64,000 bases of DNA from a virus: positions 52,167 through 116,166 of IMG/VR virus record IMGVR_UViG_3300042991_001118, one strand, 5' to 3'. Positions 7,646 through 53,410 of the stretch are shown here, one piece after another. A model generated the notes under the pieces. The model was given only the letters and a program-made list of their open reading frames with translations, was not told where the DNA came from and did not search any database. How positions within the stretch are numbered: the first letter of the stretch is position 1; every line of letters begins with the position of its first letter. Made by a program: the position numbers and the translations under genes.

Positions 7646-8055
7646 TCATGTCCATTGGCTAAAAAACACTCCGTTGTATGGAACCTATTTAGTTTAATAG
7701 CAAAATCGATATCGTCTTTTTTTGCGATTAAATCTGGGAGAACGCCAGAAAACAAACGCTCTTCTGGCATCCTGCAATCGAAACAACGTACACATATAAA
7801 TTTTCGGAACACTACCATTTTGGATATTGGGACATCTTTGTCTAAATTTGGGACATTTTTGTCTGGAGTAGATGCCGTGGTATACCAAGCCTTCTGTGGA
7901 ATTTTGTTCCCAGACAATGCGATAATGCAGAGAATTTCATTACAAGAATCAATAAAGCCTAAATCTAGCATGGCTTTGTGTATTTCGTTAGGTTTACTGA
8001 TTGGTGATATTCCAATTTTTTTATTCAATACATGTTCGGACATGACATGCCACAT
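7612..8055 (-). CDS. hypothetical protein
   Basis: ORF track. Confidence 0.55.
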   Translation of the reverse strand: MWHVMSEHVLNKKIGISPISKPNEIHKAMLDLGFIDSCNEILCIIALSGNKIPQKAWYTTASTPDKNVPNLDKDVPISKMVVFRKFICVRCFDCRMPEERLFSGVLPDLIAKKDDIDFAIKLNRFHTTECFLANGHECVQYWPRKLI

Positions 8056-8059
8056 TGCC

Positions 8060-8467
8060 TTACCCTCGAAATATATCCTTTAGTCTACTTGGTGGTGATT
8101 CTTGTTCTTTTTGTTTTTGCTTGCCAGTTTCTTGTTCCGGTTGTTCGACGGTTGCGCCACTATTTAGCAACAAGAGAGAGACAATTGAGTCTAGTGAATC
8201 TTTGATTTCCTGCAAAGTCTTCATGACTTTGTCGTCTGTTTCATGTGAAAGGATGGCTGAAATAACTTTGCAAACGTATACTTTGTCCTGGCTATTGCCA
8301 TTCTTGGCATACAAAATCAATTCTGGAATTAACCCAGCCAGATCAAATCCGGTATCTTTAAGCTGTACTTTTATCCCAGTTCCATAGAGAAGTTGTAGGG
8401 CAGATTCTTTTTCATCATGCACCTGGCTAAACATCATTTCTTTCAGAAAATTTAACAAATTATCCAT
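8060..8467 (-). CDS. hypothetical helical protein
   Basis: Coupled to the upstream ORF. Confidence 0.6.
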   Translation of the reverse strand: MDNLLNFLKEMMFSQVHDEKESALQLLYGTGIKVQLKDTGFDLAGLIPELILYAKNGNSQDKVYVCKVISAILSHETDDKVMKTLQEIKDSLDSIVSLLLLNSGATVEQPEQETGKQKQKEQESPPSRLKDIFRG

Positions 8468-8948
8468 TTCCGAACTCCAATATTTCCGTAAGGACTTCCT
8501 TTGATTTTTGTTTTGACTTTGGAATAGATTCCTGAGATTTGGAAATTGTATTTTCCAATACCTTCACGCTTTTCCAAAGCTGCATGATTTGCATTTCTTG
8601 TTTCACGTCTTCTGAGTTTAGATTCCCTGCCATGGATTTCAATGATTCGATAGATAGAGTTGTTTCCCTAACGGAGGATAATTCATGTCCCAATGAGGAC
8701 ACCTTTTGCTCCAATATAGAAACCCTAGAAATCAAAGCTATCACCTCCTGCGATAGCTTGTCGTTAATAATGACTTCTAGCCTTTCCCTTGTTAGGGAGT
8801 CTAGTCTTTTTAACAGTGCTTCGGATTCTGGGTCTTTGTCGCTTTTGATTTCAGTATTGAATGCCTGGAAAATTGGCTTTATGATAGTCCGCATAATCCA
8901 AACGATAATTCCTACTTTGTCCGACATAAATACACCTTCCCATATCAC
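8460..8948 (-). CDS. coiled-coil protein with hydrophobic N-terminus
   Basis: VGIIVWIM; heptad-like LISRVSILEQKVSSLGHELSSV; follows the kinase. Confidence 0.6.
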   Translation of the reverse strand: MIWEGVFMSDKVGIIVWIMRTIIKPIFQAFNTEIKSDKDPESEALLKRLDSLTRERLEVIINDKLSQEVIALISRVSILEQKVSSLGHELSSVRETTLSIESLKSMAGNLNSEDVKQEMQIMQLWKSVKVLENTISKSQESIPKSKQKSKEVLTEILEFGNG

Positions 8949-9997
8949 TTTGTTTCGTCCTTAATTGGGGCAAAATTTAGGACGTTTTCCTTGGCCATTT
9001 GCATTAGAAGTTCCCATTCGGCCAAATTCATGTTAAATATTTTTTTTACCTTTCCCGTGTTCCCCCCACACAGGATTAAAAAATCAGAAAATGCCCTAGC
9101 TACAGACAACGCATCTTGCGCTATGATTTTCTTTTCTTCTCCAAGATTAAATTCTGGGAATGCGTCTATAATGTCCTGAAAAAATTCGACAGTATTTCCT
9201 GGTCTTCGTTCTCTATCATCTTGCCATGCTTTTGGCAAGGTCATTAGGAGTTCTACCGGGAGATTTTCTGGGGCAAATTCATCGTCATTCGCAACCATGA
9301 AATAACATATCTTTGCGAGTGCAAAGATATCTGCTCTTTCATCGACATTCCCAGCGTCCTCCATCTGTTCTGGTGCGGCATATCCAGGCGTGCCAAGAAT
9401 TGCATTAGTCCTCGTCAGGACATTTTCTATTCCAGACATCGCTATACCGAAATCTATGAGCTTTGCCTGTCCAGATTCCGTTATGATGATATTGTCAGGT
9501 TTTAAGTCCCGATGCACGACGTTATATGAATGCAGTAGCCCGACTCCCTGCACTATTTGTTTAAATAACAACAACTTGTCTTTTAGAGACAAGGACGCAC
9601 CCTGTGTTTGTATATATTTTCTTAGGTTGCTTCCTTTGCAATACTCGCATACAAAGTAGAATGGGGATTCTCTTAAGTCATATACCAGGGGGAATGGAGG
9701 AATTCTTCCAGACAAGATTTCACTATCTGATATCGTTGCCATTATTCTAGTGCTTCTGATAAACCTTTTTTCGTTCTCTTGACTGAGGTCAGGGAGTCTA
9801 ATATTGAGAACTCTCTTTTGATTCAAAAGCATGTCTTTGTATAAAATGACTAGTTTTTCAGATCCCATTCCGAGGGTTTCTAAATACTCTCCCTGTGGTA
9901 CGCAATCCCGTATCATGGAATTTGCATACATATCGACATTCCCAGCCATGAAGAGTTTTAATTTTTCGTAAAAATTTTTGTCTTTTCTCCCCAACAT
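8945..9997 (-). CDS. Hanks-type Ser/Thr protein kinase with atypical (WNK-like) N-lobe
   Basis: HRDLKPDN, DFGIA, GTPGYAAPEQ, ADIFAL; Gly loop GMGSEKLV; beta3 VLNIR. Confidence 0.9.
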   Translation of the reverse strand: MLGRKDKNFYEKLKLFMAGNVDMYANSMIRDCVPQGEYLETLGMGSEKLVILYKDMLLNQKRVLNIRLPDLSQENEKRFIRSTRIMATISDSEILSGRIPPFPLVYDLRESPFYFVCEYCKGSNLRKYIQTQGASLSLKDKLLLFKQIVQGVGLLHSYNVVHRDLKPDNIIITESGQAKLIDFGIAMSGIENVLTRTNAILGTPGYAAPEQMEDAGNVDERADIFALAKICYFMVANDDEFAPENLPVELLMTLPKAWQDDRERRPGNTVEFFQDIIDAFPEFNLGEEKKIIAQDALSVARAFSDFLILCGGNTGKVKKIFNMNLAEWELLMQMAKENVLNFAPIKDETK

Positions 9998-10007
9998 AGT
10001 TCGCTCC

Positions 10008-11492
10008 TCATTTACTTGGTGTGGGGTTTTTCTTTTCTTCTATTGGTGTCCATTTACAGACAACTCCACCAGAATTTTTTAAAAGCAAATCTTTAAATTC
10101 GATTGGAGTTTTTTTCTTATCGAAATAATCTACCAAAGTTTGTGGATCCGTGGTGGACAGAACACATATCGTCTCTTCTGTTAATCCAGAAAATTGAGAT
10201 TCTGCATTGACCTTGTCTTTTATCCCAGAACCCCATTTTGCCCTAGACTCTGAATAGAACGCCGAGTTTTTATTTTTTGTTTTTAATACGATATTGCATT
10301 CTTCAAGTCCTATAAAATTGGCAGAATTTCCTAAAATAGAGACGATTCCGATAGAGCAAATAGCTTTTCCGCGAAGTTGGGGACACCAGTACGAGTCTAA
10401 TTTATGCAAAAATAATGGGCCAGAACTATAAACAAATTCTGTAGTTTGTATCAGAGAGAATAGCCCAGCGAATAGCATAAGCTGTGTTGTAAAATCTCCT
10501 CCTGTTTGGTTCTGGAAGGAACAAAAAATTAAATTATTGCTGTTGTCTACGCCTTTCTTCCCTATCGAAAAATTTTGCAATTGCTTATCAAATGCAGTAC
10601 ACGTGATATTGGTATCCACATCGAATCTTTGCAGCGATAAAATCATTGTTGCAGCTTGTTGTCTCACGGTTTCTTGATATAGCAAGACAGAGAAAACCCC
10701 TTCCATTCCGGGCATTAAGGCACTTAAAAGCAATAAGTCTTCTTGTGTTAGGGCTTCTTTGTCCTCTAATGTGTCAATGTATAGAATTCCGATAAGTGTA
10801 TCGCTATGGAACATAGGAAAGCATATGGAGCTACAAACCTTATTTTCAACAATGCTCCTGGATAGGTCGTCAGGGTCTTCGACTTCTGTTGTCGAGAATC
10901 TTTTTGCTTCTTTCGTCTCCCAAACTTGATCTAAGATATACCGTGGCGGAACGAAGTTTTGTGGTGCTTTTGCTACGATAGGTATCCATTTTTTATTATC
11001 TACACGGTATACCACGCCACGATTGATATGGAAATTTTGTTCTAGGAAGTCCAATAAAAATTTTGAAAATTGTGAAAGACTCCTGGGCATCCGGTTAAAA
11101 AAATCGCGTGACAATTTTTCTGCCACGTTCTTTTTATTGATTAGCTCCACGCCAATAGCCCGGACCTTACTTGTCTCCATTCTCCTGGTAGCCTGAGCTT
11201 CGTCTTTAAAAATTACAATGCACCCCTGTTTGGGATGCCCCAAGACAATCACGTCGTTGTGATTTATCTTTATCGTGCTACTTGGTGCGATGGATACCCC
11301 ATTGACCCAGGTGGATCCATCTAGAGTTTCCATTATGACGCTTTCTGAATCGCGTCGTATTCTCGCATGTGCTGCCGATACGTTTTTACATTTTAATCCT
11401 AATGCTTGTAGCCATTCTAGGCTAAAAATGACAGGGTCATCACCTAGTATGATATTTTTCCCTGATTCTTGCAAGACGATATATGCGGGCAT
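10008..11492 (-). CDS. FHA-GAF-degenerate PP2C (SpoIIE-like) signalling protein
   Basis: FHA: VSAAHARI...TWVNG...DVIVLG; GAF: SRSIV..SSICFPM..LIGILYID..TQEDLLLL; C-terminal TGGDF remnant (weakest call). Confidence 0.75.
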   Translation of the reverse strand: MPAYIVLQESGKNIILGDDPVIFSLEWLQALGLKCKNVSAAHARIRRDSESVIMETLDGSTWVNGVSIAPSSTIKINHNDVIVLGHPKQGCIVIFKDEAQATRRMETSKVRAIGVELINKKNVAEKLSRDFFNRMPRSLSQFSKFLLDFLEQNFHINRGVVYRVDNKKWIPIVAKAPQNFVPPRYILDQVWETKEAKRFSTTEVEDPDDLSRSIVENKVCSSICFPMFHSDTLIGILYIDTLEDKEALTQEDLLLLSALMPGMEGVFSVLLYQETVRQQAATMILSLQRFDVDTNITCTAFDKQLQNFSIGKKGVDNSNNLIFCSFQNQTGGDFTTQLMLFAGLFSLIQTTEFVYSSGPLFLHKLDSYWCPQLRGKAICSIGIVSILGNSANFIGLEECNIVLKTKNKNSAFYSESRAKWGSGIKDKVNAESQFSGLTEETICVLSTTDPQTLVDYFDKKKTPIEFKDLLLKNSGGVVCKWTPIEEKKNPTPSK

Positions 11493-11496
11493 GCCT

Positions 11497-12075
11497 TTAC
11501 CCCTTTCTCTTCGTCACCCAGACCTTTACTTTGTCTTCACGCTCTTCTGATGCGTTTAATTGCAAACATCTGATGACGCAAACAACAAAAACACCATGCA
11601 ACGCGATGTATTTTGTATTGTTAGACGAAAAGTCAATCCCGAATAAAATTGCGGAGAACATGAGAAGGAAAATCAACAACATGAATGTTGAAGACCACAA
11701 AACAAACATAAATCCTTTCGTCGCTACGATAAATTCGTACAACAAGGAAGCAAATTTTTTCTGCACCACAACGCAATTATCCGTACGCTTTTTTTGTTCT
11801 GTATGATTTTCCTTTTGTGTTTCTTGTGATGTTTTTGGGTTTTCCACGATAGGTTCCGGTGTTTCTTGTGATGTTTTTGGGTTTTCCACGATAGGTTCCG
11901 GTGTTTCTTGCTCTATTTTGGGATTTTCCACAATAGGTACCTGTGTTACCTTTGGTGTCCCGATTACAAATTCGTCCTGTAGTATTGGTTTTTTAAAATT
12001 CATGAGCATTGTTTGATCTACTGGGGATGTTTCACACACCGTTGATGCCGCATCATTCTTTTCTTCGTTTTGCAT
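11497..12075 (-). CDS. membrane protein with Pro/Glu repeats and two C-terminal hydrophobic segments
   Basis: PIVENPK repeats; long hydrophobic stretches; RBS AAGGAG. Confidence 0.7.
   Translation of the reverse strand: MQNEEKNDAASTVCETSPVDQTMLMNFKKPILQDEFVIGTPKVTQVPIVENPKIEQETPEPIVENPKTSQETPEPIVENPKTSQETQKENHTEQKKRTDNCVVVQKKFASLLYEFIVATKGFMFVLWSSTFMLLIFLLMFSAILFGIDFSSNNTKYIALHGVFVVCVIRCLQLNASEEREDKVKVWVTKRKG
11819..11937. repeat. 42-bp tandem repeat, about 2.8 copies (PEPIVENPKTSQET)
   Basis: Units start at 11819, 11861 and 11903. Confidence 0.9.
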
Positions 12076-14799: not shown

Positions 14800-16495
14800 T
14801 TACGAGATTTTTTATAAACGATTTTGTCGTAGAATTTTCGACTAAATTAGACAATTCTACGGGATTTATATCTTTTGGCAGATAGAAATTTGAAGAAGAG
14901 ACCACTGCACTTGCTCCTCCATCACGCAAAAGTTCTATCGCTTTTTTTGATCGTGGTCTACTTTCCAATAAAGAAAAGACCTCCATTCTTTCTTTTTCTT
15001 CATTTTCAATACTCTCTAAGGTGTCCATCGCTTGTCCTATTTCTTCTTTTGGTTCTTCTGGCGGTTTTTGCAACAATTTCTCCACCATAGAAGGTGTAAA
15101 TTGGGCATATTCCGTCATAACGTGTTTGGTCCAGAATTCGGAATTCCACTCGTGCTCTTTCCCTAAACTTAGTGCTCTATCCAATAAATCAAATCTGAGA
15201 GCTAAAAGCTCCTTCCGTTCCAATTCTTGGTAGACAGATACAGGCTGCATCATCAAGACGAAACTATTTTGTGGATCTCGGGTATTGATATTGTGCCAGG
15301 CAAGATGGGTTTCTAGAATTGTCGCGAGGGTTTTTAAAAATGCATGTTGCGGACGGATACATGCTGTCGAGAATCCAACGTCCTGTTTTGCTAGGGATTC
15401 TTTCCTATCATATGACCCACCCAAATCAAGACCGAGATACCCGGCAGGGAAGTTCAATACGGCAAATAGCCTAGCCATAATCATATTTGCATCGTCCAAA
15501 GACGCTACGTTTCCGGCAGAAACGTGAGAAATTGATGTCCTATTATCACCGCATGTCGGGATGACGAAAGCCCGCATTTCACCCCAGGCGGCAGGTGATG
15601 TCAACATCTCTCCAGTTTCTGGATTAGAATACAACGTTTGGTACATCCGTTCCTGCCATTCTTTACATGCTAAGAATGCGTCTTCTGTGGACATTCCACC
15701 TACATCCAACGTAATCATTTCTTTGTCTGAACGTCGCAGCCTTTCTATCAAAATTTTATCCCAGCACCATTGTAGTTCTTGCCAGTATTCTCGAATATTG
15801 AAAAGTAAGGAGCATTCAGACCCATACCAGGCTGTCCTCTTTCTATTTGGCATTCTAAAATGTGCGACAGAATAGTATGGGACACTATTTGTCGCGTCCA
15901 CAGGTTTCCCTTCATTGTCCGCATGAGAATAAGCAGATACTTTTCTGCTTTCATCAAAACAACACGCAAGTTCCCATGGTTCGTATGGAAGTAAAGATAT
16001 AATTCCCTGGTCTTGATTTGCTGGCAAATATTCAAAATGGTCGCCGAGATGGTACATTGTCCGCAACATCGCGAATGTATTTTCATCGAGGGCATGGGTG
16101 TCTAAAAATTTGTAAAGAATATTTTCGATGTCTTTATTCGCAGAATAAAGCCAAACTGCTCTACCAGCCTCCACACCCGAAGTATCTGTGTTGAACTGTG
16201 TACAGGCACCAGCATATGCGTCCAAGACTCTTCCTATCAATGGGTCTTGTTCTATCTCGACATATGTGGCGTAAAGCTGAATGCGATTGTAATCATGTAA
16301 TGCCCTAAAGTAGTCGTGCATTACATTGTGTGCTGTTCGATGTGGATTTATGCTGCTACCTTTTGAGAACGAATTTTGCACCACGGGTTCCCTATAAAAG
16401 TTGTGGACTGCCCGGAGCGCACTAATGGGATGTGCGATATATTCCAAAATCTTATCCATGTGATCTTCCTTTGATAATTTGTAGATATTCGTCAT
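14747..16495 (-). CDS. portal protein, T4 gp20-like
   Basis: VAHFR, ITLDVGGM, LFAVLNFPAGYL; follows terminase. Confidence 0.8.
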   Translation of the reverse strand: MTNIYKLSKEDHMDKILEYIAHPISALRAVHNFYREPVVQNSFSKGSSINPHRTAHNVMHDYFRALHDYNRIQLYATYVEIEQDPLIGRVLDAYAGACTQFNTDTSGVEAGRAVWLYSANKDIENILYKFLDTHALDENTFAMLRTMYHLGDHFEYLPANQDQGIISLLPYEPWELACCFDESRKVSAYSHADNEGKPVDATNSVPYYSVAHFRMPNRKRTAWYGSECSLLFNIREYWQELQWCWDKILIERLRRSDKEMITLDVGGMSTEDAFLACKEWQERMYQTLYSNPETGEMLTSPAAWGEMRAFVIPTCGDNRTSISHVSAGNVASLDDANMIMARLFAVLNFPAGYLGLDLGGSYDRKESLAKQDVGFSTACIRPQHAFLKTLATILETHLAWHNINTRDPQNSFVLMMQPVSVYQELERKELLALRFDLLDRALSLGKEHEWNSEFWTKHVMTEYAQFTPSMVEKLLQKPPEEPKEEIGQAMDTLESIENEEKERMEVFSLLESRPRSKKAIELLRDGGASAVVSSSNFYLPKDINPVELSNLVENSTTKSFIKNLVIERCKKRYAGISEKTYA

Positions 16496-19400
16496 ACGCT
16501 AATTTGTTTGGAACATGAACGTCTTTTACGTCTGTAGGGCTTATTGTGTCAATAAGACAAGCGTATGTCGCACCAGCAAGAGCATCGGATGTGTCTTTTG
16601 ACCCGCCCTCTGGGTGATCTACTTTGTTTTCAGCCAAGTTAAAATCTAAGTCTAGCAATTCCTGTTCTAGAATCGGGATAATTGGCATATTCATTTTTTT
16701 TGCATTTATTGTGTTTCGCGTGATTAAGTATGGCTTCACATCCCGGTCGATCGAAATCACGACAGCCTTAATTCCTGCTTCTGTTAATCTTTGGATAGAG
16801 TCTTCCGATTGCCATGAATCGTATGATACTTGGCGTATCCAAAAATTTAATTTTCGTAAAAAAAAGATTAGTCTTCTGATATTGTCAAAATCAATTGGCT
16901 GTTTATTACGACCGCCTTCCAATGCAATAACGAAATCTACCTCTATTTCTTTGCATATGTCCAGTAAATTCAAGTCTTCATTTTGTGTCGAATAGGGTGT
17001 CAGGATATGCTTGCTAGGATGTACACAAGCGATTCCAGCACGACATGTGTTTTTAGCCAAGTCAACATGTAGATATCTTGGACAATCGGGATGCCTTCTT
17101 GGGTAGTATTGGCTACCACGAATCGTGCAGCCTATTTTTTCCAAAAACAAAGAGGCCAATTCAATTCCACAACCCAAATGAATCTGCATTATATCAGATT
17201 CAAATAAATTCTTCAAATCCTTATTTTGACAAGAGAGCACCCGTTCTTTATTTGAGAAGAGTTTCATAAAGCTCTTGGTTGAAATCCCTGCGAGATTCCT
17301 TGTCGCGCTTTCGCAGTCAATATCGAAAGCGTCGAAATGCTCTACAGGAACTTCAAAAACCTGACAATTTACGTTTGCTTCACATCGTGGAGAGGTTGTG
17401 TAGTTGCCTAGTTCATCTTTTATCACGTCATCTAAAACCTTACAGTCGGATGTGTTATTTCCCAGTTGTACATGGAATTTCTTTCCGCAATACGCAACTT
17501 TTTGATTGAAATCCCAAATAGATCCTCGGACGACATATCTACCAGCCTTATTCTTTACGGTTTTGATTCTTTTTTCAATAAAGTCGTCTTCCGATCCAGC
17601 ACTCCCTATAAAGACCGCAACTCCAGGGATATCTCCACTTCTTTGTATAAAACGTGATTCTAGACGTGTTGCCACGGCATTGGCTAAGTCGTATGCTCGT
17701 TTTGCGGTAGCCTGCCCTTTCCTCATCAGGTTCATTTCATCGACGGAGATAAAAAACAAGTTTTTTCCAGCCGCATGCAATGCCTGTGATCCCGTCATCA
17801 CGACTAAGGATTTTGGGAATATCATTTCTTCTGTGCCAAAAGGGCTTCTACGATAGAGGTTTTGGAAAAAGGGTGAGTCTTTGAGAATTTGGTCACGGAG
17901 AATATAAAATCCAGTATCCTCTGCACTTTTTAGGTCGTAAGAATAAATTCCAAAGACGATTTTTGATTTGCGTCCAAGTCCAAAAAATTTAGCTGGGTCA
18001 CGGAGGCACAGCACACGATGCAGTTGGTATGCCGCGATTACTCCATTTGCGATTGTGCTATTATGCGTTACAAAGCCATTTGCCACATATGACGGATTTC
18101 CATCGACTGTTAAATCAAAACATGGAGCACATCCCTTCGTGATAGAAATAACCTTATTTTGGCAAATGTCTCCATCAACTATCTTTTTTAGCAGACATGG
18201 CATCCCATTTCCCAAGATGCTGTCTATTTTTTCAAGAATTCCAATCGTTATATCTTGCGATCCCATCTTGCAATTTACAAACATATTCCTATATGGTTTT
18301 CTACTCGGTACTCTTCCTTTTAAATTTTCCCATGCCATTCTTATAAGATTGGAGCAGTTGTAAATAGATTCGCAATCATTTTTCCCACCACAATTAAGCT
18401 GCTGGCTGATTTTTTCAAGTTTTCTTTTATTGGAAAATCCGATTTTTTTGAGAAACGTTATCTTAGAACGATTCCCTTTAATCCTTATAGTCCATGCCCT
18501 GTTATGTCCGATACCTTTAATTTGTGGTATTTTACTTGTTCTACTTGTTCTAATCCCTAAAGCCAATAATGCTATTTGTGCTTGTCTTCCTAATTCTTCG
18601 CTTATCGTAGTAAATTCGATAATGTTTTTTCCATATACCGTACCATCCGTATCGAATAATCCACGTAAAAATGCACATAGCAAATCAGGATGAGACAAAA
18701 CGCATCCTGGTATACTTTTATTGATAGCCCCAGTTTTTATGCCAAATGATTTCCATCGAAGGTATATTGTTTTGTTTGTCTGTTTTAACGCAAATCTGTA
18801 ACATTGATATTCCTTTATGTTGTATCTAAAATTTATTTTGTTGCATAATTGCGATAAATGTTCGATGTATTGTTTGTCTTGGAATCCTATTGATATGGAA
18901 ATTGCACCAGAATCTTCATACCAATGTCCATTTCCTGTCCAGCTACCAAGAATTTCTGCTTCAGCCAAATCCATCACGGCTTTGTATTCACAATTTGCCC
19001 TTTTATCTTCCAAAGAAAATACTAGGACATCATCAATTGATATGTCCTGTAAAAATTTCCATATCAATTCTCCATTTTTGTTCCAGGCACGGACTCTATG
19101 CTCTCCCCTTCCTTCTATCTCATATCCATCTAAAGTCTTTATTTTAATTGTATCGGATACCCCAGCATCATATACGCCATCCACTCTTCTAAATCCATCT
19201 TCGGTTAAAACTTTTTTACCAATTTCAATCTTCCCTAATTCGCATAGGAAATCAGCACTGGATTTACATAATGTATTATCTCTTAGGCATTTGCCTATAC
19301 CCATTGCGCCCGTTAGAATTACCTCAAATACTGGCTTAACGGGATCGCATATTTTGAGGATATGCGGCCACCAAGCCTTAAAAATTTCCTCTTTGAAATG

Positions 19401-19733
19401 TCCTAGATAATCCTGGTGCGTGAAAAAGGTTTCTGGATCTACCCTTTTGTGTTCGTAGTCCACGCTATAGAGTTCGTCCAAGAGGGCATCGTTTCCAGCC
19501 ATCATAGAATCCATTACTTGCCGGACGTACTCTCTAGATTCTGGATTAAGACCCTTAAACATCTCTGAGTATCCCTTATGGAATTCATTGAGGCATTTCT
19601 CCAGGACTTCGTCCGTCACTAATTTCTGCTGGTTTTCTATCGTGTTCATTGCTGGAATCCCCAGGAATGGAGGAGGACATGATTCCTTTTTGTTCGTCTT
19701 GTCTTTCAGTTGCTGTTCCATTTGCTGTTCCAT
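16452..19733 (-). CDS. terL: terminase large subunit, intein-interrupted
   Basis: Walker A GAMGIGK|ST, Walker B ISVDE, nuclease HVDLA...YDSWQS...DHP.GGSKDTSDA. Confidence 0.92.
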   Translation of the reverse strand: MEQQMEQQLKDKTNKKESCPPPFLGIPAMNTIENQQKLVTDEVLEKCLNEFHKGYSEMFKGLNPESREYVRQVMDSMMAGNDALLDELYSVDYEHKRVDPETFFTHQDYLGHFKEEIFKAWWPHILKICDPVKPVFEVILTGAMGIGKCLRDNTLCKSSADFLCELGKIEIGKKVLTEDGFRRVDGVYDAGVSDTIKIKTLDGYEIEGRGEHRVRAWNKNGELIWKFLQDISIDDVLVFSLEDKRANCEYKAVMDLAEAEILGSWTGNGHWYEDSGAISISIGFQDKQYIEHLSQLCNKINFRYNIKEYQCYRFALKQTNKTIYLRWKSFGIKTGAINKSIPGCVLSHPDLLCAFLRGLFDTDGTVYGKNIIEFTTISEELGRQAQIALLALGIRTSRTSKIPQIKGIGHNRAWTIRIKGNRSKITFLKKIGFSNKRKLEKISQQLNCGGKNDCESIYNCSNLIRMAWENLKGRVPSRKPYRNMFVNCKMGSQDITIGILEKIDSILGNGMPCLLKKIVDGDICQNKVISITKGCAPCFDLTVDGNPSYVANGFVTHNSTIANGVIAAYQLHRVLCLRDPAKFFGLGRKSKIVFGIYSYDLKSAEDTGFYILRDQILKDSPFFQNLYRRSPFGTEEMIFPKSLVVMTGSQALHAAGKNLFFISVDEMNLMRKGQATAKRAYDLANAVATRLESRFIQRSGDIPGVAVFIGSAGSEDDFIEKRIKTVKNKAGRYVVRGSIWDFNQKVAYCGKKFHVQLGNNTSDCKVLDDVIKDELGNYTTSPRCEANVNCQVFEVPVEHFDAFDIDCESATRNLAGISTKSFMKLFSNKERVLSCQNKDLKNLFESDIMQIHLGCGIELASLFLEKIGCTIRGSQYYPRRHPDCPRYLHVDLAKNTCRAGIACVHPSKHILTPYSTQNEDLNLLDICKEIEVDFVIALEGGRNKQPIDFDNIRRLIFFLRKLNFWIRQVSYDSWQSEDSIQRLTEAGIKAVVISIDRDVKPYLITRNTINAKKMNMPIIPILEQELLDLDFNLAENKVDHPEGGSKDTSDALAGATYACLIDTISPTDVKDVHVPNKLAYDEYLQIIKGRSHG
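18060..19289 (-). mobile_element. 410-aa intein with LAGLIDADG homing endonuclease
   Basis: Starts CLRDNT, ends FDLTV...NGFVTHN before Ser; motifs LGSWTGNG and FLRGLFDTDG. Confidence 0.93.
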
Positions 19734-51604: not shown

Positions 51605-53410
51605 CTATTTTCTAGATTTATGATCGGCCAGCCTTGTAAAAATATCTGGCACAGTTTTCACTCTACCTGGTTCGTCGGTGACGTGTGAGGCAGGTTTTAA
51701 CGTAGTCTCAACTAACTTTGGTTTAGATATAGTTTCATCCATAGGGACACCCTTACGGCGTTCTTTTACAACCATGGAAGGTTTCTTACGAAGGGCTTGA
51801 AGCAAAGCACTAGTTGTTTCTTGAAGTTTTGGCAACGTTTTGCATTTAGCTAAAATAGACCTGAACTCATGCAGTTCGGGAGTCTTCGCTAAAATACTTC
51901 CCAGTTCAAATCCAGTTACTTTTTCTTCAAAAATCTTTGCCATCTCAGTATTTATTATTTTAAGATTTGTGTTCTCGTTTTGCAAGAGCAAATTTTTCTT
52001 TCTTAGTGAAGAAATTTCTTCCTGCAATGATTTTTGGTATTGATTTTGTGCAACGCTTCTAGACTTTATAGATTCATTCCTTCCCATTTCTTTTCGTAAT
52101 GCACGTCTATAGGACTCGGTGGTTGGTTCGACGATAGTTTCTGGAGGAAGAGACGATTGCGGTTCTTCTGGTGCCTGGACATTATTTAACACTGGGATAG
52201 TAGCGTCAACCACAGGAACACTCGAAGCAGCCGGACTAACAGCAAAAATTGTACACAAAATGCCCTGCACAGCCTCTGGCGTGGCTGATTCATTTTTCTC
52301 TAGCTCTAAAGACAACTCAATAACATTGTCCTTCCACAACGCCACAATCTCTTTCGGGGCTAAATTCCTAGACGACAATTCTGACTTTATCAAGACCACA
52401 AGAGTTTCTAGACTTTCCCCAGGACGAAAAAGATTAAATTTCTTTTTGATATCCTCTCCTAATGCATCCAACGCGACACTAAAATTCGTAAGGAAAGTTA
52501 CCTTCGTCGTCGCTACGGCTGTGTCTACAGATGGAGGAGTGTCAATAGGTGTTGAAATAGGAATCTCCTCTTCATACATTCGACCATTTCGATATACGAC
52601 CTTTTTCGATCGTTTCATCACGCTATCTCCTATATTACGTTTTGTGTGCCGGACAAGAGTTTTCAATGTCTCCACGAGCAAACACAATTCATTTTTCCTA
52701 GAACTACGCTCGGCCAAAAATTTAGCATCGCTTAACCGAGGATCCCATGTCGGATTCCAACCTTCTTTTGTAATTTCTTCCTGTAAAGCACTTAGCTTCT
52801 CATAGCACAACTCGGCAGCCTCCTCTTTACGAACGGCATCCTCTCCGAGTGTATTAAGAGTTTTTTGCAAACTCTCGTGCAGCACTGCGCCAGGAGTAGA
52901 TGGCTCGGCTACTAAATCAAACGTCTCAGGCTCAAAATCCTCCATTACTTCGTCTACACCCGAACCTAAACGTTTTGTGCTTCCGTGCGCTCTGGATGAA
53001 ACTCCTATAGAAAGACCATCCTCGAACAACGCAGCCGCCGTTTTCCCCGCTTGTGTACGCAAAGTCTCTAACGTCCCCCATATCTCTCCATTTTCTTTTA
53101 GCTGCAAATCCGTAATGATAATAGCCGCCTCTTTAAGGTCCGGTCTTCCATCTTTAGGATGCTCTAGATGCCCCCATACACTCCTGGCTTTTATGGCACG
53201 CATAAATGGGCTATCCTCTTTGCAATGCCTTTCCCAAATATGCCGTGGATATATCCTGTTATTTTTGTTTACGACACCACAATGCTGAAACTTTCCACGG
53301 ACTCTCACTTTTCCGTCTGCTAACTTTGTAATCCCCTCCTGTAACATCTGCAAAGGGATTGTGTCTTCCAAAAGCAGCATTTTTATCCTCCAATACTTCA
53401 AATGTTCCAT
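51605..53410 (-). CDS. prohead protease (gp21-like) fused to scaffold-like region (start probably 53380)
   Basis: NKNNRIYP, GHLEHP, GVSSRAHGS, FDLVAEPSTPGA; coiled-coil C-terminus. Confidence 0.9.
   Translation of the reverse strand: MEHLKYWRIKMLLLEDTIPLQMLQEGITKLADGKVRVRGKFQHCGVVNKNNRIYPRHIWERHCKEDSPFMRAIKARSVWGHLEHPKDGRPDLKEAAIIITDLQLKENGEIWGTLETLRTQAGKTAAALFEDGLSIGVSSRAHGSTKRLGSGVDEVMEDFEPETFDLVAEPSTPGAVLHESLQKTLNTLGEDAVRKEEAAELCYEKLSALQEEITKEGWNPTWDPRLSDAKFLAERSSRKNELCLLVETLKTLVRHTKRNIGDSVMKRSKKVVYRNGRMYEEEIPISTPIDTPPSVDTAVATTKVTFLTNFSVALDALGEDIKKKFNLFRPGESLETLVVLIKSELSSRNLAPKEIVALWKDNVIELSLELEKNESATPEAVQGILCTIFAVSPAASSVPVVDATIPVLNNVQAPEEPQSSLPPETIVEPTTESYRRALRKEMGRNESIKSRSVAQNQYQKSLQEEISSLRKKNLLLQNENTNLKIINTEMAKIFEEKVTGFELGSILAKTPELHEFRSILAKCKTLPKLQETTSALLQALRKKPSMVVKERRKGVPMDETISKPKLVETTLKPASHVTDEPGRVKTVPDIFTRLADHKSRK

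Follow-up and report, generated by a model that had tools for sequence, protein, structure and literature searches.

In a 64,000-nucleotide stretch of viral DNA (positions 52,167 to 116,166 of the IMG/VR virus record IMGVR_UViG_3300042991_001118; hereafter, the window), we analyzed a gene for a Ser/Thr protein kinase of the bacterial PknB type in which the residues expected to bind adenosine triphosphate (ATP) are arranged in an unusual way. The kinase, denoted here P0001, lacks both the lysine of strand beta3 and the glutamate of helix alphaC and carries a lysine, Lys48, in the Gly-rich loop, at the very position where the eukaryotic WNK kinases place their catalytic lysine. As judged from the alignments, this relocated-lysine pattern is a conserved trait that defines a clade of related proteins. 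We give an even chance to the full picture, namely, that a phage lineage has reinvented the WNK architecture in a PknB-type kinase, in two steps that are still readable in the relatives, and that the resulting enzyme is active, with Lys48 being essential.

A lysine at the WNK position of the Gly-rich loop

The elements of the gene that are central to the argument are the following.

8945..9997, minus strand: kinase gene P0001, 350 amino acids (open reading frame [ORF] with ATG at 9997 and GGAG 7 nucleotides before the ATG)
9848..9871, minus strand: Gly-rich loop G43-M-G45-S-E47-K48-L-V50 (family consensus G-x-G-G-[EQ]-K)
9854..9856, minus strand: Lys48 (AAA), the candidate for the relocated catalytic lysine; corresponds to PKA Gly55 and to the WNK Gly-loop lysine
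9803..9805, minus strand: Asn65 (AAT) where the beta3 (VAIK) lysine would normally be, aligned to the lysine of Staphylococcus aureus PknB
9752..9754, minus strand: Ser82 at the alphaC glutamate position, with the RF motif R78-F79 kept and invariant in the clade (PknB and clade alignments)
9491..9514, minus strand: catalytic loop H162-R-D164-L-K166-P-D-N169 (clade alignment)
9446..9454, minus strand: DFG motif D182-F-G184 (D182 and G184 invariant, F183 nearly so)
9368..9415, minus strand: activation segment from T195-R-T197 to A208-P-E210, with the TxT layout of PknB-type kinases

The motifs on which the original prediction, a reading of the nucleotide sequence alone, was based are all present where it placed them, namely, LGMGSEKLV (residues 42-50), RVLNIR (62-67) and RFIRST (78-83), and the HRDLKPDN (162-169), DFG (182-184) and APE (208-210) motifs are intact, as it had claimed. 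In a phmmer comparison with solved structures, LGMGSEKLV was paired with the segment LGGGGMSTV in PknB from S. aureus (4eqm), with Lys48 falling on the serine, and the same alignment confirmed that the beta3 lysine is replaced with Asn65 and the alphaC glutamate with Ser82. The WNK motif that the prediction had used for comparison is matched by WNK3 (5o26), which reads GRGAFKTVYKG...VAWCE, and the proposed gap-free correspondence of the two N-lobes, lysine to lysine, holds as well: the loop and beta3 positions lie 17 residues apart in P0001, WNK3 and S. aureus PknB and also in L049, a WNK homolog from a giant virus that is described below. Lys48 and Asn65 also share profile columns with the loop lysine and the beta3 residue of L049. 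In PKA, the pairs Gly55/Lys72 and Val57/Ala70 face each other across strands beta2 and beta3. Given this pairing and the 17-residue spacing, the loop and beta3 positions should be cross-strand neighbors that face the ATP site, and because both side chains would lie on the ATP-facing side, a lysine at either position could reach the phosphates. The AlphaFold2 model of P0001 (mean pLDDT 83.6) shows the bilobal kinase fold, with residues 48-55 and 60-67 forming paired strands, in agreement with this arrangement. A BLASTP alignment of P0001 with L049 (28% identity) shifts the N-lobe by two residues; this register was rejected because the profile, the PknB alignment and the Gly-loop anchors agree on the other one.

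The frequency of lysine at the loop position was determined with 467 distinct kinase domains, all aligned to a single profile and taken from the proteins that the searches had recovered as well as from the ORFs of 160 viral and metagenomic loci. Lysine occupies this position in 17 domains, 15 of which belong to the P0001 family (cluster members included); among the approximately 450 domains outside the family, only L049 and an unrelated phage kinase, L080, have it. The most common residues are Gly (323 domains), Ala (75) and Ser (38). By this count, the loop-lysine pattern is more than chance. The L049 kinase, which is encoded at 7935-8885 on the plus strand of the giant-virus contig GVMAG-M-3300020165-43, is a genuine member of the WNK family (E value 1.6e-64 to WNK3 and about 1e-64 to WNK1), and its lysine in the loop column served as the positive control for the column assignment.

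The loop of L049 reads G-N-G-A-M-K, and its beta3 residue is Asn (I-A-W-N), not Cys, and so matches the Asn of the phage family. The loop of L080 (IMG/VR UViG_2832354953_000001, ORF from about nucleotide 5116 on the plus strand) reads G-G-Q-K; this kinase also keeps the beta3 lysine (A-V-L-K-V) and the alphaC glutamate and thus possesses both lysines, which makes it a possible model of the intermediate state.

Reciprocal occurrence of the two lysines and phylogeny of the family

Twelve close metagenomic relatives of P0001 (42-55% identity, 334-353 amino acids) are found in a large protein database, the search of which recovered P0015; an exhaustive representative search yielded five more distant full-length relatives (P0124, P0170, P0182, P0184 and P0238) with the same C-terminal domain. 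Three relatives are encoded on contigs of 130-138 kb. Other collections were searched with the kinase as well: the IMG/VR scan gave no relative with more than 30% identity, the metagenome scan gave, among the matches listed, only ordinary kinases with at most 35% identity, the genome scan gave a single spurious match of 25 residues, and a word-based search with the N-lobe alone (residues 1-110) returned only the query, which reflects a limit of the method and not absence.

The beta3 lysine is missing in 13 of the 18 aligned sequences, where it is replaced with Asn (nine), Gln (three) or His (one), so that a polar residue is always kept. Both the conservation of the loop lysine among the homologs and its co-occurrence with the loss of the beta3 lysine, which the original prediction had named as points to check, are apparent in this alignment: the loop lysine is present in 12 of the 13 sequences without the beta3 lysine, the exception being P0013, with Ser, and in none of the five sister sequences, all of which have the beta3 lysine and, in place of the loop lysine, Ala, Thr, Gly or Ser. 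All columns were scanned for positions with basic residues in 75% or more of the lysine-less group and 20% or less of the sisters; only Lys48 and Arg196 emerged, and because Arg196 lies in the activation loop, Lys48 is the sole candidate in the N-lobe. The possibility, raised at the outset, that a rival basic residue from the QKR or NIR segments occupies the canonical site thus finds no counterpart in the scan, in which no other basic N-lobe residue appears specific to the lysine-less clade.

The same data bear on the proposal that the kinase is active but anchors ATP with Arg62, Arg67, Lys61 or the polar beta3 residue, leaving Lys48 for substrate or regulatory contacts. Position 62 is indeed Lys or Arg in all 13 family members, Arg67, two residues past Asn65 on the same face of beta3, is Arg in nine of the 13, and Asn, Gln or His is invariably kept at the beta3 position. 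However, positions 62 and 67 are basic also in several sisters that possess the beta3 lysine and so did not arise together with its loss; Arg67 is replaced with Met, Cys or Leu in four members; position 62, going by strand alternation, should face away from the ATP site; and Lys48 alone tracks the loss of the beta3 lysine. We consider an anchor other than Lys48 improbable.

For phylogenetic analysis, a careful maximum likelihood tree was constructed after removal of the trait columns of the Gly-rich loop, beta3 and alphaC. In this tree, the 18 sequences comprise a clade separate from ordinary bacterial kinases (support 99/98), within which the 13 lysine-less sequences are monophyletic (80/94) and P0184, which has the beta3 lysine, is their sister (88/81). 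One state change suffices to account for the distribution of the lysines, and a quicker tree of 77 rows agrees. By this phylogeny, gain of the loop lysine and loss of the beta3 lysine fall on the same branch, and the loop lysine has persisted while the sequences diverged to about 45% identity.

The changes around the lysine appear to have an order. The alphaC glutamate position is mostly Gly or Ser in the lysine-less family and is Ser or Gln in all five lysine-bearing sisters; P0009 has Glu there, which is either a reversal or a retention. Loop position 47, which is Met in 350 of the 467 kinase domains (75%), is Glu or Gln in all 18 clade members and Glu in all five lysine-bearing sisters. Since the sisters that still have the lysine are already without the alphaC glutamate, the Lys-Glu pair seems to have been dismantled from the glutamate side first, and this earlier loss may have relaxed the constraint on the placement of the lysine.

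Kinship with PknB and convergence with WNK

P0001 matches the Pfam Pkinase family (PF00069; 107.6 bits with a cut-off of 31.7, E value 9.1e-31), as do all 18 clade members, and the PHROG family 'serine-threonine kinase' (phrog_2361; E value 1.8e-35). The Pfam match is confined to residues 74-242 and does not extend to the first three N-lobe strands, so the N-lobe has to be considered atypical. In the phmmer comparison with solved structures, the first match is S. aureus Stk1/PknB (E value 9.5e-27), followed by StkP and Mycobacterium tuberculosis PknB, and no WNK kinase is among the 60 best matches listed for P0001. The fold comparisons point the same way, with a Foldseek E value of 4.8e-16 to PknB and a VIA-align superposition on M. 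tuberculosis PknB (5u94) with Z of 25.8 and a root-mean-square deviation (rmsd) of 2.6 A over 233 residues at 29% identity. Because the nearest relatives by both sequence and fold are PknB-type kinases and not WNK, the likeness to WNK is convergent. The idea of a convergent WNK-like layout in a phage kinase is thus borne out, as far as sequence comparison can carry it, in all its parts, namely, the phage genes that surround the kinase, the reciprocity of the lysines, the lack of any other basic N-lobe residue specific to the lysine-less clade and the PknB kinship.

Descent from a true WNK-family kinase acquired by horizontal transfer would account for the combination of a loop lysine and a non-lysine beta3 residue with identical spacing, and a giant-virus contig in the same collection does carry a real WNK homolog. 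Nevertheless, the best solved relatives of P0001 are Stk1, PknB and StkP (E values 1e-26 to 1e-20), PknB leads the fold ranking, the bacterial RF motif and the TxT loop are present, the sisters keep the beta3 lysine, and L049 falls outside the P0001 clade in the 77-row tree, so this origin seems to us extremely improbable.

Catalytic status

All 18 clade members, which are 30-55% identical, with a mean column identity of 45%, have the same residue at 13 positions: H162, R163, D164, K166, P167, N169, D182, G184, T195, G202, Y206, E210 and R265. The Lys-Glu pair of Hanks kinases is absent, Asn65 and Ser82 being found in its place, and a definition of pseudokinases by loss of the VAIK lysine, the HRD aspartate or the DFG aspartate would formally include P0001, as it would WNK. 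We favor, with moderate confidence, the view that P0001 is an active Ser/Thr kinase of the PknB-like kind (Hanks-type, RD-class), in which Lys48 anchors the ATP phosphates. In the scenario that we propose, the lineage would first have lost the alphaC glutamate and exchanged the Met of the Gly-rich loop for Glu or Gln; the loop would then have gained a lysine, and the beta3 lysine would have become Gln, His or Asn. The phosphate-anchoring lysine would thereby have moved from strand beta3 to the neighboring beta2, where the Gly-rich loop ends and WNK kinases have their lysine, with Asp164, Lys166, Asn169, Asp182 and the TxT loop unchanged. With all other phosphotransfer elements intact, the kinase probably binds Mg-ATP and autophosphorylates on Thr195 and Thr197. 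During infection, it would act on phage or host proteins together with the FHA-GAF-PP2C-like protein encoded next to it.

Several observations weigh against this reading. P0013 is without both lysines, yet its other catalytic residues are retained, which implies either that the loop lysine is dispensable or that the P0013 copy is inactive. The missing alphaC glutamate is a mark of inactivity in many kinases, and the Glu or Gln beside Lys48 at the tip of the loop is unusual and could disfavor phosphate binding. Furthermore, the reciprocal pattern of the two lysines reflects a single evolutionary event and so does not count as statistically independent evidence.

These points lead to the alternative that P0001 is a pseudokinase, which would retain the fold and perhaps nucleotide binding but not phosphotransfer and would serve as a scaffold, a decoy or an allosteric partner; examples of its partners would be the FHA-GAF-PP2C-like neighbor or a host kinase, phosphatase or defense sensor. 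Both members of the Lys-Glu pair are missing, the standard sequence definition would label P0001 a pseudokinase, P0013 does not have even the loop lysine, and the Pfam match that begins only at residue 74 attests to the atypical N-lobe. By contrast, the HRD aspartate, the Lys and Asn of the catalytic loop, the DFG aspartate, the activation-loop threonine and the APE glutamate are invariant across the clade, a pattern typical of catalysis that most bacterial pseudokinase families have lost (bioRxiv 10.1101/2025.01.12.632604); WNK kinases and POMK show that a layout of this kind can be active (PMC1821047, PMC12599244); and the conserved loop lysine is located exactly at the WNK position. We therefore regard a catalytically dead protein as unlikely, and the intact phosphotransfer residues together with the conserved lysine at the WNK position seem to speak more for an active enzyme than for a dead one.

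Comparison with known kinases

WNK has been singled out as the one functional family of eukaryotic protein kinases without the beta3 lysine (PMC1821047). P0001 resembles WNK1 and WNK3 (1T4H, 5O26) in having a lysine at the third position of the Gly-rich loop, at the start of beta2, a residue other than lysine in beta3, and intact HRD, DFG and APE motifs. It differs from them in that the beta3 residue is Asn, Gln or His in its family and Cys in WNK, in the absence of the alphaC glutamate, which is kept in WNK1 (Glu268; PMC1821047), in the absence of the WNK autoinhibitory and PF2 domains, and in being carried by a phage. With PknB, Stk1 and StkP (4EQM, 5U94, 1MRU), P0001 shares the RF motif, the RD catalytic loop and the TxT activation loop, as well as a gene neighborhood with FHA and PP2C partners, with which PknB-type kinases are frequently paired. 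The VAIK lysine, the alphaC glutamate, the Met of the Gly-rich loop (Glu in P0001) and the gatekeeper Met (Cys117) of these kinases are replaced; P0001 has no transmembrane or PASTA part, and N-terminal helices and a C-terminal domain specific to its clade have been added.

An atlas of approximately 300,000 bacterial Ser/Thr kinases describes the RF motif of alphaC in these enzymes and delineates seven pseudokinase families, all of which vary the VAIK lysine and six of which also lose the HRD aspartate (bioRxiv 10.1101/2025.01.12.632604). The companion review lists Lys-to-Arg replacement or other compensations, and WNK and POMK figure in it solely as eukaryotic examples of a lysine in the loop (PMC12599244). 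Families such as DYD, ActPs2 and DLHK, as presented in the review (PMC12599244), are similar to P0001 in the loss of the beta3 lysine, and DYD is also without the alphaC glutamate, retains HRD and DFG and is predicted to bind ATP; unlike P0001, however, these families either have Arg in place of the lysine or have lost HRD or DFG as well. In the passages of the two texts that were examined by term searches, a loop lysine at the WNK position is not described for any of these families, and the word 'phage' occurs in neither text (PMC12599244, bioRxiv 10.1101/2025.01.12.632604). A literature search on phage Hanks kinases turned up nothing relevant.

In two other kinase-like branches, the positive charge of position 72 has independently come to be supplied from the Gly-rich loop, by a lysine in POMK (SGK196) and by Arg55, in combination with Met72, in the CAK-chloro subfamily of choline and aminoglycoside kinases. 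These enzymes are unlike P0001 in their substrates, O-mannose and small molecules, in the DLD motif, and in Gln186 and Phe91. The kinase of phage T7 (gp0.7, T7K) is also phage-carried, like P0001, but belongs to a highly divergent lineage with DPV instead of DFG. T7K phosphorylates many host proteins and disarms defense systems (PMC13645617), and, by analogy, disarming of host defense is a plausible role for P0001.

Implications

The beta3 lysine is routinely mutated to produce 'kinase-dead' controls, and its absence is used for automatic labeling of pseudokinases. If the reading that we favor is correct, P0001 would represent a second, unrelated lineage that has reached the WNK lysine position and, therefore, a clean case of convergent re-engineering of an active site, in a phage-borne kinase of the bacterial type, with sister sequences that still show the state before the lysine moved. 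It would then be the first active Hanks-type kinase outside the eukaryotic WNK family with the loop-lysine solution, and WNK-like consequences would be possible, for example, an altered nucleotide pocket that could be regulated by small anions or by an inhibitor protein. Such a finding would caution against calling kinases without the beta3 lysine dead from sequence alone and would provide a small, soluble and bacterially expressible model for dispensing with the Lys-Glu pair. In addition, a cassette of a kinase, a phosphatase-like protein and an FHA domain joins the kinases carried by phages, some of which disarm host defenses (PMC13645617).

The adjacent FHA-GAF-PP2C-like protein

The gene immediately upstream of the kinase is co-oriented with it, with a spacer of 10 nucleotides between its stop codon and the ATG of the kinase. 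This gene and the kinase surface that is predicted to contact its product are located as follows.

10008..11492, minus strand: 494-amino-acid protein with an FHA domain (about residues 1-95), a GAF domain (137-261) and a PP2C/SpoIIE-like fold (265-490), from Pfam and structure
9206..9277, minus strand: C-lobe residues 241-264 of the kinase, the predicted FHA docking surface (alphaG region by fold position; complex prediction)

The FHA and GAF domains match Pfam with E values of 1.3e-5 and 2e-4, respectively. The C-terminal 225 residues have no Pfam match, and an Atlas model of this part superposes on clusters of SpoIIE/PP2C phosphatases with TM scores of 0.74-0.76. The complex of the kinase with residues 1-110 of the neighbor, which contain the FHA domain, was predicted with ATP and Mg included and with three controls. 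The ipSAE values were 0.66, 0.70 and 0.70, and the best control reached 0.00; in a calibration performed without ligands and with other alignments, 58 of 80 solved complexes attained the mark for this score, as did two of 110 mismatched pairs. The prediction runs agreed in at least 89% of the contacts, with pLDDT of the partner of at least 87, and place kinase residues 241-264 against FHA residues 6-11, 62-66, 77-83 and 87-94. The modeling supports binding of the kinase to the FHA domain of its neighbor.

The combination of a kinase, a PP2C phosphatase and an FHA protein is a standard signaling unit of bacterial Hanks kinases. The presence of such a set in a phage suggests that the kinase is regulated within the set itself or that the phage gains access to the phospho-signaling of the host, and P0001 probably works as a pair with the adjacent protein. 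Three features of the neighbor speak against such a partnership: neither the protein search nor the search of IMG/VR yielded a homolog of it; its PP2C-like domain looks degenerate by sequence; and its FHA domain has G-D for the canonical G-R, and hence no Arg, and S-A-A-H for S-R-x-H. With the Arg missing and the second motif altered, classical binding of phosphothreonine by this FHA domain is doubtful.

Upstream of the FHA gene (window 11497-12075, minus strand), a protein of 192 amino acids is encoded that contains tandem repeats of the P-E-P-I-V-E-N-P-K-T-S-Q-E-T type, after which its C-terminal half is hydrophobic. This protein may reside in a membrane and belong to the same gene string.

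Other features of the kinase and the source phage

Outside the kinase domain, P0001 consists of an N-terminal two-helix extension, a linker and a C-terminal domain of three helices, which is located as follows.

8975..9109, minus strand: C-terminal three-helix domain, residues 297-341 (helices 299-309, 314-321 and 325-341), present in the 18-member clade

This domain contains the conserved motif G-G-N-x-G-K-V-K...E-W-E, and its last helix is acidic. It has no Pfam match in any of the 18 clade members and no clear fold match. The spacing of the motif recalls a helix-turn-helix of the Fis/NtrC type, a resemblance that the Pfam and fold searches did not confirm. For a 66-amino-acid single-sequence model (pLDDT 72), the best VIA Z is 6.0, which is within the noise for helical pieces, and Fis itself ranks 31st, in the noise range, with Z of 4.6 and rmsd of 3.1 A over 52 residues.

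The N-terminal helices, which span kinase residues 4-32 (window 9902-9988, minus strand), are conserved in the clade, with the pattern L-F-L-A-G-N-x-D-x-Y-A...C-V-P. Residues 93-103 form a conserved insert between alphaC and beta4 that ends in P-P-F-P and is about six residues longer than in PknB. On the 3' side of the kinase, two small genes follow (window 8460-8948 and 8060-8467, both on the minus strand), with overlapping or abutting stops and starts. The TGA of the kinase is overlapped by a GTG, and an ATG with a GGAAGG ribosome-binding site is found 20 nucleotides further on. The product of the first of these genes has the look of a coiled coil and a weak match to DUF6674 (E value 0.0025).

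The virus record to which the window belongs is 116 kb long and about 61% complete according to CheckV. All genes of the window are on the minus strand, the GC content is about 39%, and the phage genes include those for the portal, the large terminase, the tail sheath, the tape measure, the baseplate wedge, the prohead protease and the major capsid protein, so that the source is a large contractile-tailed phage. The single public run that contains the complete stretch is a cave metagenome, which is probably the source of the DNA; no RNA run that contains the stretch is listed. The ORF of the large terminase (window 16452-19733, minus strand) is unusually long, with 1093 amino acids; the terminase profile covers only residues 524-625 and an 'endonuclease' PHROG covers residues 261-370, and this ORF may contain an inserted or fused nuclease module.

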